A stretch of 64,000 nucleotides of DNA from Octopus sinensis (taxonomy: Eukaryota), in contig NC_043019.1 of the NCBI RefSeq assembly GCF_006345805.1, positions 23,001,360-23,065,359 of the forward strand. The letters are read 5' to 3'. The notes under the pieces are model-generated. The model ran no database searches. It was not told the DNA's origin and was given only the letters and a program-made list of their open reading frames with translations. How positions within the stretch are numbered: position 1 is the first letter of the stretch; the number at the start of each line of letters is the position of its first letter. A program made the translations under genes and the position numbers. This document shows, one piece after another, positions 37,060 through 57,348 of this stretch.

Positions 37060-38405
37060 ATAGATAAGAAAGTTGGTTTGTGAAAGCACGTGGTTGAATA
37101 TATAGAAAATAGTAAAAAGTGAAAAAACTACAGAAGGCTTAAATGTTAAAAAAATATATATTTGCGTCAATATGTCTGAAGAATATTAAAAAATTTTTTT
37201 CTCTTATAATGACATAGTTTAGAAGAAAGACCGGTTTCGTGTTTAGCTTTTCAAATTTTTTGCGACGTTATGTTTATGTTGAATAGAGTTATCGTTATGT
37301 CTATGTTCAAAAGAGTTCTATTAGTAAATTCTGGGTGATGATGGTGAAGGCTTCTTTGTTTCTGGGGTTGTATGTAGATATGTAAGGTAGTATTTTCGGG
37401 GAAGGTGTGTTGTTGTGTTGAACTTTTCTTAAAGTTTCTATGTTGATTTCTGTTGCACGTCTGATCCCACCCTCTATGAGTTGAGCTGGGTAATGTCTGT
37501 CAATTAGAGTACAAAGAAGCCTTCACCATCATCACCCAGAATTTACCAATACTTCATAAGGACCCCAAATTAAAGGAAATTCTAAACATACACCAAATCA
37601 TTAAAAGCTACAAACAACCTAAATCACTTAAAAAGATTCTCACAAAGGCAAAATTGTCTTCTGAAATTACGGATGCAAAAGTAAAAAAATGTGGTAGATC
37701 GAACTGTGCAACATGTCCAAACCTATTGGAAGGATCAGAATTCCTCTTTAAAGAGGGACAGAAATTCAAGATCAAATCTAACTTTACTTGTGCCTCTGAA
37801 AACATAATTTATGTCATAAAATGCTCGGGCTGCCACCAAGACTACGTGGGATCCACGGGACTATCACTTAGACGTAGATGCATACTGCATCGACAACAGA
37901 TTGCATTCCCAGAATACAGAATGATACCTTTTAGTGAGCACATTGAGAAATGCGCAAAGCAACTACTACCACAATTTTTAATCTTTCCATTTTACCAATG
38001 TGCTATCGGATCATCAACACAAATTAGAATAAACAAGGAAACATTCTTCATTGAAAAGTACAAGCCCAGACTTAACCATCCCAACATACTGATACAGAGA
38101 AATTCACACCAAGGGAAAGGAAAAAATTTTTAAGTGATTATCTCCCTTACACCGGAAGAAATCACTCATTACCTCCCCTTATTTAGAACTCTTTTGAACA
38201 TAAACATAACGATAACTCTATTCAACATAAACATAACGTCGCAAGAAATTTGAAAAGCTAAACGCGAAACCGGTCTTTCTTCTAAACTATGTCATTATAA
38301 GAGAAAAAAATTTTTTAATATTCTTCAGACATATTGACGCAAATATATATTTTTTAACATTTAAGCCTTCTGTAGTTTTTTCACTTTTTACTATTTTCTA
38401 TATAT
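37060..38405 (+). mobile_element. Penelope-like element 3' portion with an inverted terminal repeat
   Basis: 37098-37320 is the reverse complement of 38185-38405; 37321-37510 is an inverted upstream piece of the ORF. Confidence 0.9.
37513..38133 (+). pseudogene. Penelope-like linker plus GIY-YIG endonuclease, open frame, 5'-truncated
   Basis: KCGRSNCATC...FTCASENIIYVIKCSGCHQDYVGST..LRRRCILH...EH...KETFFIEKYKPRLN. Confidence 0.88.
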
Positions 38406-45880: not shown

Positions 45881-46777
45881 GTATATATATATATAATCTA
45901 TATATTAATACACTTGTACCATCAGTGTTTGTCACGCTATAGGAGATAAGTCAGGATTAAATTTGAGTTATTTCCCTTGGATTTGTGAAAAGAAGAAAAG
46001 GATAATATATTATCTATATATAATATAGGAAAGTGCTGTAACGGATGTATTTCACATATACTTCCAAACAATAACTTAATATATACTTATTTTATTAATA
46101 AATGTCTCTCTCTCTATCTCTTTCTCTTTCTCTCTCTCTCTCTCTGTCTCTGTTTCTCTCTCAATGTCTTTCTTTCTTTCTTTCTATCATATGAAATATA
46201 CCTGACATATTCTACAGATCGATATAAACTACCGGGACCCGTGAAAACTTCATGGAAAACAAAAAAAGTAAGCATCTTTAAATAGTGACCATATTTAACT
46301 ATCGAATAATTTTTATTATTTTTGTGTTATATTACAAATAATCATACATTTTCATATAATATAATTTTATATGTTTTCAATACGACAGTTCATAGATTGT
46401 ACATTGCACAATGCTCACTTTCACATCCGTGGAAGGTGTGAGCTTTGAGGTTCTTCATGTTTGTTTTTCACTGGATACATAAATAGGATACATCTGAATT
46501 AATTCATCATAATTATTGAGAATATTGAACAATAAACAAAAACTTACATAGCATTCCCCAATTTTTTTCATCTGAACACAATTTGCGTTACAGACCATGA
46601 AGATTAAAAATGGTGGGATGCGACCGTAGACTTCCCCAAGTAAAGATTTGTCACAGAAGCATAGAGTGTAGCTAAAGCTATTTTAACATTGCATTATATT
46701 CCTGAAGAAATTCATTGTAGTATAGTTACAACTGATTACATATAATTCACTTTAGCATTCTATATATTGATATGCTT

Positions 46778-46989
46778 CTACCATTGGTGTTTGTCACGCC
46801 GAGGAAACTGTTTTCATATATTACTTACACCTACCATCAGTGTTTGTCACGCTGAGGAAACTGTTTTCATATATTAGTTACACCTACCATCAGTGTTTGT
46901 CACGCTGAGGAAACTGTTTTCATATATTACTTACACCTACCATCGGTGTTTGTCACGCTGAGGAAACTGCTTTCATATATCACTTACAC
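46778..46989 (+). repeat. 4 x 53-bp tandem repeat in the Helitron 5' region
   Basis: ctaccatcagtgtttgtcacgctgaggaaactgttttcatatattacttacac at 46778, 46831, 46884 and 46937. Confidence 0.95.
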
Positions 46990-47403
46990 ATTCAACCATT
47001 CTTAAAAATGGAAGAGAGAATAAGTCAACAAAGAGTGGCACCAAAAGAGCAACAGAGAAGACAAAGACAACGGTTACCAGCAGAAGAGAGGCAAGCAATC
47101 CATGACTATATTCGGGAACAAATGCAAGAAAGGAGGAATAATATGAACCAAGAGGAGAGAGAATTTTATCTTCAGAATAGAGGAAACAGAGATTGAGAGA
47201 GAAGAAATAACATGAATCCCAAGGAGAGAGAAGCTTATCTACAGAATATGAGAAACAGAGTTCAACAGCGAAGAAATGCCATAAATGAGAATAAAAACTT
47301 TAGGATTCCATATTGGTGATATGAATGTTATTTGTTGATACTATGGAGCTCTAAGATTCTCAAGAGAGGGCTTGGCAGGTATCACAACTAGCAGGACTGG
47401 CTA

Positions 47404-47449
47404 TCCTAGACTGATGACGAGCAATGGACTCAGAAACATAGCCCTAGGA
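47404..47449 (+). ncRNA. Degenerate type-I hammerhead-like motif in an insert within the Helitron
   Basis: uccuag a-CUGAUGA-c GAG(caaugga)CUC a-GAAA-c aua g cc-c cuagga; cleavage triplet is GCC rather than GUC. Confidence 0.5.
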
Positions 47450-49323
47450 AGCATCGACGCTTCCTGTCGGCTTTGACACATTTCCTGTGTCCTTATATTT
47501 GTGAAGGGGAGGCAAGCACCCCCACCAGCTAGGGCTAGCACCTTGAGACATGCATGCCACAATGGAAAAATATTAATTCCCACTTTACAAGAATATCCTG
47601 GTAATCTTAGGCAATTGTTTGACAGAAATAATCACGAAGGATCTAATTTTAGGAACAACATAAGAAAATATAATTCTGCCTTTGCAGTTGCTTCTTTTGG
47701 TGCTAATATCAAACCTCCACCAGGACCTGGCCCTTATTGCTTCTGATTACAAGGTCAAATATATCATTACACCAGCAATCTGCATCCAAATGAAACCAAA
47801 TAGAGAGGATATGGTCAGCTCTACATCATTGAAACAAATGAAGCAATCCATACCTGAGCCAATGCTAATTAAAATGCCAATTGCTTATTATTGGTGTTTG
47901 AACAAATATTAGTTACAATGAATAGTAGTCCTTATGCAGCAGCATACAATAATGTGAAAACTATTGAAATGCAAGAGCAAGAAAGAGCTGCAAAAGAAAA
48001 TATTCCTTCTAGAAAAGTAACCATACACTTCATCCCAGGTCTTGATGCAAGAAGATGCAATAATCCAACAATAAGATTGCGTCAATTTTTGTTGGTGAAG
48101 ATGGAGTGCTGCTAGTCCATGGTGATATTGTTGTATATCCTATAGGACAACATAAAGAGAGAATATCGTACATTTCTTGGCATTTAGGCCCCATGGTTTA
48201 TCCTCGTCTTTTTCCAAATGGCAAACAAGGATGGCATATCAACATACCGCACATACAACATTATCAAACCAGAGTTCGTAATAATGTAACAATGCAGGAA
48301 TTCTACGCATATCATTTGGCCATAAGAGGTGGTTTCAGCGCAATACATTGAGTGGGAAAATTATTTCAACAATACATTAAGTAGACACAGCAATTGCACT
48401 TCCATAATATTGTAGTCAGAATGTACTCAGCAAGTCCACGTAATGCAGAAAAAGTTTATTTGAGGATGCTACTCTTGCATATCCCTGATGCAGCTTCTTT
48501 CAATCGTTTAAGAACTGTTGAAGGTGAAGAATTTGAAACTTCCAAAAGGGTGTGTATTACATTGAGACTTCTTGATAATGATAATTAACTACAAAACACT
48601 TTGACAGAAGCAGCAACATATCAAATGCCACGGCAGCTTCTAGGCATGTTTGCCTCTTTAATCAACCTGTCAAGGCTTTGCAACTATGGAATGAAAACAA
48701 AGAATTTATAATTGAGGACCTTTTGCTAAGAAAGGACTACACTACTGCTGAAAATATTGCTCTTCATTTGGTGGAGGCCATATTTGGGGAAAATGGCCTC
48801 CACATTGTAGCATGTTAGGCCTTCCTGAACCAGTTGGAGAGCCCCTAAGAAATGAAAATAATACAGAACAATGAATTGTAAATACAAATTTATTGAACAT
48901 TGAACAAAGAGAAGTATTTAATTGCATGATTGATGCCACATTTTCAGTTGAGAGAGGAGAAGAAATTAATAATAGATTGTTTTATTAGGACATGCCAGTA
49001 GGGTCAGGAAAAACTTTTATTCTTCAATATGATTTACGATCATCTTACAGCTAACAATATAACAGTAAGTACATCTGCTTGGAATGGCATTGCTACAACT
49101 CACTTGAAAGGTGGTAAAACTCTTCACAGTGTATTCAAGCTTCCAGTTCCTTTGTGTGAAACAAGTGTGTGCAATGTTCCACCAAATTCTATTCAAGGAA
49201 ACATTCTTAAGCGAGTAAAAATCTTCATTATTGACGAAGCTTCAATGATACCAGTTTATGGTTTGACAGCTAGAGATAATTGTTTAAGAGATATTATGAA
49301 TAGTAACAGTATATTTGGTTACT

Positions 49324-49578
49324 ACCCATGCCAGCATAGAAAACAGACATTAACCCCATGACAATGGTTTTTTATCAGGCAACCAGGTTACACTGACAGT
49401 AATTATCTTGGCTGAGATCAGCAATTAGCACACAACAACTGTTTGGCATATATTTGCATCTACTGCTTTAAAGCATGCACTGTTTATTTATGTAAACTGT
49501 CATCACTGCGAGGACCGTAAATTCAACAAAACTGGCATGGCTGGATGCAACTGGAAATTTTGTGAAGAACCAGAAAGA
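49324..49578 (+). repeat. Copy of 51167-51424 inserted in the helicase
   Basis: ~255 bp colinear match; interrupts SNSIFG|KIIVLGGDFRQ. Confidence 0.9.
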
Positions 49579-50315
49579 TTATCGTACTAGGAGGAGATTT
49601 TAGACAAGTTCTTCCAGTTGTTCCCAGAGCTCCTCCTGCCGCTGTACTTGCCTCAAACGCTCCTCTGTGTCAGATAATTTTCATCAAATGCAACTTATGC
49701 AATTCATGTGAACAAATGCAAATGAACAAGGTTTTACGAGGTGGCTACTACAACTTTGAAGTGGATTTCTTCAAAGCTCTCCTGATAATCTTGCAGAAGA
49801 TACTGTTGATATTCCCGAGGCATGCATATGTAACAATTCTTTGGTATCTGATATATTGTACAGCAGAAGAAATTAAAAATATCCCCTAAAAATTCAAACT
49901 GCTTAGCAGTAAATGAAGAAATTCTGCAGAATTTGTTCTGCATCGGACCCAGTTCCTAGTTCATCTGTTCTATTCTATAATAATCTATAAAGCACAGGGG
50001 AAAACATTCAATAGAGTTGGCATATACTTGCCACAGCAATGCTTCACTCATGGCTAGCTTTACGTAGCTTTTTCAAGAGTAAGGGTGATGAACAGTGTGA
50101 GAGTTAAAGTGATACCTCAAAACAAACTCACTCATGGTTGCAGAAGGGGAATCACTTATACAAGAAAAATTGTAAATAGGGAAGTGCTTATATTATTAAG
50201 AAATATAATATAAAGGATAATAGTATTTTTCATCAACCAAAATAGGGCAAAGTAAACAATTTTGATTAAATAACTATTCATTGCACGATATTTAAATTAT
50301 CCGTGAATTTTGTTG

Positions 50316-50385: not shown

Positions 50386-50600
50386 GAGCTGGCAGAATAA
50401 TTAGCATACCAGGCAAAATGCTTAGCAGCATTTCGTCTGTCAGTGCGTTCTGGGTTCAAATTTAGCCAAGGTTGAATTTGCCTTTCAGCCTTTCAGAGGT
50501 CAACAGATTAAGTAGCAGTCGAATAATGAGGCCAATGTAATCAACTTATGCTCTTTCCCAGATTTGTTGGCCTTGTGCCACAATATTAAATCAATATGAT
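50386..50600 (+). mobile_element. SINE family B variant
   Basis: gagctggcagaataattagcatacc...ggccttgtgcca. Confidence 0.75.
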
Positions 50601-55495: not shown

Positions 55496-57348
55496 TCGTA
55501 TTTGCCATTGTATAATATGACTGGGTGTACAAGACGACCCCAGGATTTCCATTTAAAAAGTGAGTTTTGAGCTCTATTTGTTGTATAAGATTACTCCAAG
55601 TTTTCATGGAAAATAGCTCAAGCACTGAAATGTGCAAGGTTTCATAGTTACAAGGGTTGGGTGAGCTGTAGCTTCATCAGAAACCCCTGAAGCCTCTGCT
55701 TTTCTTGTGTTTCAATAACATTTTATCTGTTTCAATCAGTAAACTTTGTATGCAACAATTCTGCAATCTTGGTTGTTTAAAATTTATCCAGTTCTTTTCA
55801 GACAGTGACCAAATATTGTTAACTGTCTACTATAACAAACATACCTGGCTGGTGTAAACACGACTGTAGTAACATCACTTGGTTATTTTACCAGAACTAA
55901 CATGGTGTCAATTATGCCATAATAATACAATTTATTTGAAATAGATTTACAGACTTATTTACAGTATGTATAATATTATATTGTAATATATTAGAAATGT
56001 CATTATAAAGTACACTGCTAGTATTTTCTTTAATTTGTAAATTTTGTCTTGCTTTATGAGAGTATTGGTCTTGAAACAACGTATTCATTTTGATGCAGCT
56101 CATGGACCATGTCTGCTACGCGCTTCTCTAGAATCAACCAGTGTGCAGTGCTTCCTCTAATTGCACATTTTGTCCTGAGTATACTCCTTAATAAGTCTTC
56201 CTTTAAGCTCCAAACTCTTGACATCTTCTCAGTTACAGAATATTGTCTTGCAGCAGCACAGCTGTTTTGGGATTTAGCATATGCTAGCACTTTCAACTTA
56301 AATTCAGCCTCGTATTTCCTTCGTTTACCACTTGGAGCCATGAGGGGGTTTTAGTTGCTGGAAATTAATGTTCACCCAGTGAGAATATTGCTGCTTACGA
56401 AAGAGAAAGACTAACAACCTTTTCAAGAAACCCTATCTGTAAATGTTCAAAAATAACCGCTAACTGTAAGGTCTATTGTGATTGGTCTGACTGATACAAA
56501 CTGACCAGTCAGAGAAGATACTGGTACATGCTGCTAATTTGCTGTAACAGGTAGGTGAGTTACCATAAACTACAATTGTCTTGAAAGCCCTCGACTGGCC
56601 TAGTGCTGTATGAGAAAGTGCTCTAACAAGGCAGTGTAAGCAGAATGGACCCTGGGACGTGGTTGAATGGGCTGATTGTTTACATTTTCTGTTCATCAGC
56701 TTTTGCAAATGGCGATTGGTATCTGTTTGCTAAGTTTGCTGTGCTGTTATTTTAATATAATCTTACTATTAATCCTGCTTCCCAAATATACGCGTAAGTA
56801 TCAGTAGAAAATATTTGTAGAACTATAGGATCTATGAGAGTATTTTGCGGTGTTCTCCATCGATATGTGCAAGTATCAATAGAAACTACCACCTGTGTCA
56901 TCTCTTGTGAAAGGTAGGAGAGTCCAGTTTGCTGGACATTGTTGTAGAGCTGAAAACGAGGCAATTTTTACTCTTCTCCTCTGGAAGCCATCCGCTCACA
57001 ATACCAGAGGGCTCACACTCTCCTACCCTGATGTAATCTCCAGGGATACAGGTATCCAGCAACAGGACCTCCGTAATGCTATGATGGACCGTGAAGTTTG
57101 GCGTAGCATGGTAAATTCCATTGTCTCGACCACGGTCGAACAATGATGATGATGATCAATAGAAAATACTGCACTGTAGAACCAGAGAATCTATGTGAGT
57201 GCTTGACACTGTTCTCCATTGACATTGGTACTACTCTGAACCACAGGAATTTCGGGTTCAGATTTTATACTGGGTATATAAGACGACTCCTAGATTAGGG
57301 GTGAATTATTTAGAGTTCAGATTCCATCCTGTACACTGGTGTAAACAG
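55496..57348 (-). mobile_element. Internally deleted pogo-like DNA transposon
   Basis: ORF 56054-56341 MAPSGKRRKYEAEFKLKV...AAARQYSVTEK (Brinker-type/CENP-B HTH); eroded TIRs; ctgggt(g/a)ta(c/t)aagacgac at both ends. Confidence 0.75.
56886..57154 (+). mobile_element. 5'-truncated RTE-clade LINE (second family) with 11-bp TSD
   Basis: RRVQFAGHC.R...DREVWR..*, (tga)n tail directly after the stop; TSD atcaatagaaa at 56875-56885 and 57155-57165. Confidence 0.9.

Follow-up and report, generated by a model that had tools for sequence, protein, structure and literature searches.

A decayed, rearranged copy of a hammerhead retrozyme family in a Helitron of Octopus sinensis

A GC-richer block interrupts a decayed Helitron in the 64-kb stretch of Octopus sinensis DNA analysed here (the window), and it carries the core letters of a hammerhead ribozyme. 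What is this block, and how did it come to lie there? The first-pass annotation took it for a retrozyme-like monomer with a mutated cleavage triplet. The class stands, as the insert belongs to a dispersed, ORF-less repeat family with a type I hammerhead; the monomer does not, as only 186 nt of a 353-nt unit are present, broken by an inversion and with both normal 3′-ends missing. We regard the window copy as a decayed, rearranged new member of the known retrozyme class. None of the outcomes that would count against a retrozyme origin was found: the insert is not single-copy, it is not part of the Helitron consensus, and its homologues conserve the core. No other piece of the 353-nt repeat family is present elsewhere in the window, where a general repeat search returned mostly microsatellites.

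The host is assigned to the Helitrons because it retains PIF1 helicase remnants (Pfam, E = 3.7e-18 at 49002–49358), which lie downstream of the zinc-finger region; dispersed paralogues are also present. Its short stop-free pieces gave no Pfam match to a Rep domain. Two paralogues, L032 and L033, which are two of the four other matches from a Helitron paralogue search, are both empty at the insertion point. Measured against them, the insert comprises 47369–47554, or 47366–47556 when the junction microhomologies are counted. The insert annotated at 47369..47549 is therefore real, but its right end has been corrected to 47554/47556. Its GC content (52%, versus 35% in the flanks) bears out the description of a GC-richer block splitting a decayed Helitron. 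The junction had been read as ...GALRFSRE/ACHNGK, but the start of “ACHNGK” falls within the insert and not in the Helitron; the empty paralogue L033 reads CxxC...EILNCCHNG across the insertion point. Relative to L032 and L033, the Helitron lost 12–15 nt at the right junction, and there is no target duplication. The two 7-mers tctcaag/cttgaga noted at the junctions are indeed present (47358–47364 and 47542–47548). They were considered as element ends and rejected: the left arm is Helitron sequence, found in the empty L032, and the right arm is the cleavage-site region of the repeat family itself. The match is treated as chance, with rough odds of 1 in 100 estimated after the fact, and no role was found for it. 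Elsewhere in the host, a 53-nt unit is repeated in tandem about four times at 46778–46989 in the Helitron 5′ region and occurs once in L032, and a second, inverted piece of Helitron sequence at 50386–50542 matches L033 and L034.

A genome search with the insert, in which 40 of 2,288 first-look candidates were scored, matched it as two separate pieces. On a 353-nt consensus unit built from 16 and 18 partial copies, the insert reads as unit 46–117 in the sense orientation followed by 232–115 in antisense (pieces B and A; Table 1). Both pieces are adjacent in 25 of 29 other fetched loci, but in the opposite relative orientation; four of the 29 had no match to the first piece, and the piece order of the window is seen in none of the 29 (L014 and L015 of this set overlap one place). 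The breakpoint lies inside the stem III palindrome CATGCATG, with an inner-junction microhomology of 1–2 nt. Contigs of DNA run X15, which may be the assembly's own sample, join the Helitron to sense piece B (47306–47434, 0 differences) and antisense piece A to the Helitron (47514–47800, 0 differences); run X17, from the same study, also joins antisense piece A to the Helitron (47514–47704, 1 difference). These contigs support the inversion because piece A is already reversed where they cross the right junction. Misassembly of a high-copy repeat at its palindrome is very unlikely to explain the inversion, given the joints in X15 and X17, even though the inner junction is bridged by no piece among the contigs listed. 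Summed contig depth, which is no copy number, is far higher over 47458–47501 of piece A than over the rest of the insert; this stretch is common to several families.

Table 1. Coordinates of the insert, its host and its hammerhead parts in the window.
Feature	Position	Strand	Basis
Decayed Helitron, left part; zinc-finger region stops at junction	46005..47368	+	78–87% identity to L032, L033
Left-junction microhomology, 3 nt, common to Helitron and repeat	47366..47368	+	Empty sites, family
Piece B: unit 46–117, ribozyme-sense; 5′ half of hammerhead with its long stem I extension	47366..47439	+	96% to nearest copies
Empty equivalent of LINE landing site (unit 61–79)	47381..47399	+	Other copies
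Stem I, 5′ strand	47405..47410	+	Covariation in family
CUGAUGA and GAAA of the core, with a 3-bp stem II (7-nt loop) set between an extra C and an extra A	47411..47436	+	Sequence
Inversion junction, within palindromic stem III	47437..47439	.	Orientation map
Piece A: unit 115–232, inverted relative to piece B	47439..47556	-	97% to nearest copies
GCC and cuagga of the first-pass annotation: inverted downstream sequence mimicking the missing half	47441..47449	+	~unit 222–230 antisense
True stem I 3′ strand, A-A mismatch shared with L014	47541..47546	-	Family rows
True GUC cleavage triplet, strand opposite core	47547..47549	-	Family alignment, mapping
Right-junction microhomology, 2 nt	47555..47556	+	Empty sites
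Decayed Helitron, right part, with PIF1 helicase remnants	47557..49886	+	Paralogues, Pfam

The family hammerhead opens with stem I and CUGAUGA. Its 3-bp stem II is preceded by an extra C and followed by an extra A, after which come GAAA, the palindrome, GUC and the stem I partner. Hammerhead rows were counted by hand after removal of duplicates and four non-family rows, leaving 28. The GUC that had been predicted for the consensus is found in 27 of these 28, whose loci were picked for their resemblance to piece A, and the core is intact in 23 of the 28, which were not selected on the CUGANGA core. The exact core pattern has 162 matches in the genome and none in the control, and a looser pattern that also covers related families has 1,796, versus 187 in the control. 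Among 82 distinct domains, which belong to several related families, were picked by the core pattern and record few independent pair changes, stem I positions 1–6 are paired in 77, 78, 75, 74, 73 and 69, respectively. The pairs are of several Watson–Crick types, and five of the six positions exceed all 2,000 shuffles while the sixth ties. Stem II position 2 alternates between G-C and A-U in these domains, and stem III is palindromic in 67 of the 82. Core, three stems, GUC and compensatory changes together point to a type I hammerhead. Rfam gave no hammerhead match for the window or for the intact copy L018, even at E 10, and thus misses the family. Related retrozyme families with compensated stem I were seen at L098:5930-6260, L141, L146 and L160, with the stem III palindromes ACUGCAGU, ACUCGAGU, ACAUAUGU and ACUAGU. 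The same core, with the extra C/A, recurs in older families of short repeats at L203–L217; the copy at L209 is dimeric, its period being ~420 nt.

The window sequence contains the core as annotated (CTGATGA at 47411–47417, GAAA at 47433–47436), the stem II strands GAG/CTC, and two further hairpins at 47447–47464 and 47475–47491. “Hairpin-rich” is nevertheless not an apt description, since the insert folds at chance level (z -0.99, -0.59 and -0.91). The remaining parts had been misassigned. The strand cuagga is a product of the inversion and not the native stem I partner, and the supposedly inactivated GCC belongs to the inverted piece. Because the break falls within the palindromic stem III, the true GUC and stem I partner survive on the minus strand. 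An intact short monomer whose GUC had mutated to GCC was refuted by unit mapping and retains almost no probability: a 6-bp stem next to a GCC can indeed be folded on the window strand, and one family copy, L030, carries a genuine GCC change, but the GCC and stem seen here are antisense unit sequence, a GUC is still present, and the unit is 353 nt long. In a pairing test, the mimic fold works only with one additional unpaired A ahead of C3, it places A15.1 opposite C, and stem I cannot close directly on the core, as register 0 gives A-C for the first pair. By the NUH rule and the usual hammerhead numbering, the window copy has no same-strand NUH triplet with an A15.1-U16.1 pair. The mimic fold is predicted to be non-cleaving because of the bulged A before the core and the C facing A15.1. 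The ribozyme of the window copy is thus predicted to be split and inactive, and with half a unit and a split core the copy is not an active retrozyme. It is a dead fragment in a dead Helitron, and a warning that inversion can build a convincing false hammerhead. Seven other CUGANGA...GAAA matches occur in the window; the one at 55680 (minus) has no stems by eye.

Metazoan non-LTR retrozymes are described as ORF-less, strongly self-paired units of 150–450 nt with one type I hammerhead, and those of mussels as 350–390 bp (PMC7229834; bioRxiv 10.64898/2026.07.22.740005; both in their available portions). The octopus unit is likewise ORF-less, falls within 150–450 nt and has one type I hammerhead, and the family resembles these retrozymes, as portrayed there, in its dispersed monomers, partial tandems and occasional dimers. 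Head-to-tail repeats with two complete hammerheads are represented by same-strand core pairs 352 and 354 nt apart (C12:11101889/11102241 and C3:93010763/93011117, among 100 places listed). The family differs in its GC content (46.5%, versus <45% in the metazoan elements of those portions) and in that no pLTR match to an autonomous Penelope-like element (PLE) was found, whereas 24 of 57 Xenopus families in the same portions have one. The window copy, a broken fragment, is unlike the monomers of that class. Neither cephalopods nor insertion ends were found in the available portions of the two sources. The intact octopus unit folds at z -9.6. In three of three copies the monomer hammerhead fold is predicted to lie 5–13 kcal/mol above the MFE, and the palindrome duplex is predicted at -13.3 kcal/mol. 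The family RNA would self-cleave, probably as a dimer joined through the palindrome; of nine predicted Xenopus dimers, eight did not cleave (bioRxiv 10.64898/2026.07.22.740005, available portion).

How the family moves can be read from its insertion ends. Of the 84 outer 3′-ends in 66 distinct insertions at 60 loci, 68 map to unit 290–304 or 345–353; these loci were selected for the unit middle, which biases which ends are visible. The two fixed 3′-ends lie 55 nt apart and mostly adjoin AT-rich or microsatellite DNA, and the 48 outer 5′-ends are scattered. Internal junctions in the same insertions are direct (16), head-to-head (19) or tail-to-tail (1); a wider set of 141 loci has 28, 27 and 1, respectively, and the single tail-to-tail inversion among 28 is the window copy. 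Ragged 5′-ends, two fixed 3′-ends, head-to-head inversions and AT-rich targets are ends of the PLE type. PLE insertions show the same pattern of traits in the part of PMC8557442 available, and two internal start sites have been reported for a PLE in vitro (PMC11167929). The family shares with PLE insertions in these two sources the 5′ truncation, partial tandems, inverted 5′-truncated copies, an optional tail between two start sites and AT-rich targets, but its tail is longer (55 nt, versus 30–40 nt). An extra base after A9 and a palindromic stem III are likewise PLE hammerhead traits (PMC4209133, in part). Compared with the hammerheads in that part, those of the octopus differ in a 6-bp stem I with a long extension, a stem II of only 3–4 bp, an extra A before G12 (the C...A combination occurs in 76 of 82 domains, a count partly set by the search patterns) and the lack of an ORF after the hammerhead.

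Animal retrozymes have been proposed to be non-autonomous PLEs (bioRxiv 10.64898/2026.07.22.740005, available portion). For the octopus family, we infer that a Penelope-like element supplies the enzyme in trans. Neptune-type PLEs with open frames of 775–883 codons are present in the genome, and many near-identical copies with a 781-codon open frame occur at L099 and other loci, making this apparently young family a candidate enzyme source. The unit sequence is absent from all 30 fetched GIY-YIG loci (30 of 149 matches, with 150 of 5,029 candidates scored) and from four of four extended PLE loci. No PLE frame adjoins the core in 20 variant-core loci, and these variant cores resemble short repeat families of greater age. 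Because no examined PLE shares the unit, the partner is inferred and not named. A hammerhead beside a PLE in L098 was considered as its pLTR and rejected, being a separate retrozyme between TA runs. The window contains a 5′-truncated Neptune-type PLE with an inverted copy, head-to-head and between TA runs (37100–38404), which may be the element called E in the first-pass annotation; it includes a GIY-YIG at 37516–38076 and, by eye, a degenerate minimal hammerhead-like motif at ~38245–38280. The family offers a clean test case for the proposal that Penelope enzymes move animal retrozymes, because its two 3′-ends predict the reverse-transcription start points.

The window copy itself has none of the family's insertion hallmarks: its tail-to-tail geometry is the opposite of that of PLE insertions, both 3′-ends are gone, and neither outer junction could be primed on sense RNA. 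Nor was support found for the palindrome as a breakpoint hotspot: there were two genome-wide matches for a copy starting there, and besides the window two of 30 loci end there. We consider it moderately probable that this 186-bp two-piece fragment, with its second piece inverted at stem III, arose by one aberrant Penelope-type reverse-transcription insertion into the Helitron. The left junction would be an ordinary 5′ junction. The polymerase would have stopped at the palindrome during sense-strand synthesis, switched to the sense template at position 232 and copied back to the palindrome; the end may then have been sealed to the target through microhomology, removing the normal 3′ junction. 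A template switch is preferred because it is a single event, uses the known RNA polarity and accounts for the lost 3′ junction. This step is proposed from one locus, whose letters would be the same under two other histories.

In the first of these, an uninverted unit 46–232 with a whole hammerhead was inserted, and 118–231 was later inverted in place by a replication template switch across a 3-nt inverted repeat, CAT/ATG. The letters are those of a clean reciprocal inversion with no gain or loss, three of the 84 outer 3′-ends lie near unit 238–241, and short-range template switching has been described (bioRxiv 10.1101/2021.11.26.470150, available portion). Such a history nevertheless seems rather unlikely, as an insertion with an atypical 3′-end would have had to be followed by a 114-nt inversion on 3-nt homology, neither of them a common event, and no uninverted allele was found among the DNA-run contigs or joints listed. 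The second is twin priming on a retrozyme RNA of minus polarity, with both target strands primed, at position 46 and at the palindrome. Both outer junctions run from target into ribozyme-sense sequence, and the pieces abut at 115–117 with an overlap of ≤3 nt. Abutting pieces with such outer junctions are the signature of L1 twin priming, here only given an antisense template. This history is improbable: it would account for a single one of the 28 inversions, fixed antisense start sites were not seen, and minus-polarity RNA was not found mentioned in the available portion of PMC7229834. A literature search on twin priming in Penelope elements returned no relevant report. Were it true, animal retrozyme RNAs would exist in both polarities, through RNA-to-RNA copying or antisense read-through, and priming by a Penelope enzyme could take place on the minus strand, with synthesis stalling at the palindrome of stem III.

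Whichever way the copy arose, a template switch being our preferred reading, its relatives have a second relationship that a specialist would notice and that is more interesting than the insert itself. In three retrozyme families or more, L1/Tx1-like LINEs very probably insert at a point 20–30 nt upstream of the hammerhead core. In several family copies the hammerhead is closely preceded by a LINE 3′-end. By BLAST, a 1.62-kb element with ORF1 only touches a retrozyme on at least one side in 25 of its 30 best loci (24 of 29 without the query copy), compared with 1 of 150 control windows; of its 21 full-length copies, 14 have retrozyme sequence on both sides. Some copies were later amplified with their host, and 25 is not a count of events. 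By eye, three more loci show only a short target piece followed by another LINE; two lie in unrelated DNA, and a 16-nt duplication accompanies one of them. Target duplications that are exact or have one mismatch were called in only five of 30; others can be seen but have diverged. The host retrozymes comprise at least three families 65–80% alike, and the LINE copies are 87–95% alike. On a LINE tree (27 of 30 rows kept), eight host changes are needed where the minimum is five, so that several of the insertions must have been independent. Genome-wide, the LINE terminal motif stands 14–36 nt upstream of 78 of the 1,796 cores, versus one in the control. In 30 fetched sites, the spacing from motif to core is 20–22 nt (11 sites) or 28–30 nt (17 sites), with two outliers. 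In the unit, a TA-rich box lies 20–45 nt upstream of the LINE site; the window copy lacks the box.

ORF2 sequence is present in eight of the 30 fetched sites, and three of seven extended sites hold 5-kb endonuclease-RT elements with a 14-nt duplication. Pfam matches in pieces of L164, L167 and L170 give a CCHC ORF1 and an ORF2 with APE endonuclease, RT and zf-RVT, an arrangement shared with L1 and not diagnostic of Tx1; no named Tx1 reference occurs among 70 LINE homologues. Those homologues that are named come from Argonauta, a hint that the host is an octopod. The nearest autonomous LINE family sampled (next to L101) is mostly untargeted: two of 30 loci touch the retrozyme library, one of them the query copy, and by eye some eight others lie in front of degenerate hammerhead-like sequence.

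Target-specific LINEs are known in the Tx1 clade, with Tx1L in Tx1D, Keno in U2 genes and Tx1-Mar in Mariner-N4 (PMC4494074, available portion). The octopus LINEs resemble the elements described there in their CCHC ORF1 and endonuclease-RT-zf-RVT ORF2, in a fixed position within a multicopy target, in target duplications and in non-autonomous riders. They are unlike them in their target, a hammerhead retrozyme whose families are only 65–80% alike. One target class in that portion, “satellites”, could hide retrozymes. No report of LINEs targeting hammerheads or retrozymes was found in a literature search that did not extend to Repbase and subscription papers. The group, with autonomous and ORF1-only members, would insert at a fixed point in hammerhead retrozymes even where the families differ in target sequence, and it allows a test of how an endonuclease or RNP finds its site without a common target sequence.

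Targeted LINE loci, both ORF1-only and endonuclease-RT, include L100:5498-7510, L134–L163, L173–L202, L223, L226 and L229. Stacks of two or three LINE copies at one retrozyme site, with short target pieces between them, are found at L168, L169, L170, L172 and L226; some stacked elements are only 69–80% alike, and some come from different ORF1-only families. At L117, L120, L121, L123, L125 and L127–L130, degenerate hammerhead-like sequence from one more family comes after the 3′-end of an autonomous-type LINE. At L102 (3999–5132) and L162, composites of LINE and retrozyme show a head-to-head inversion and a retrozyme 3′-end, and here the composite itself seems to have moved in the PLE manner.
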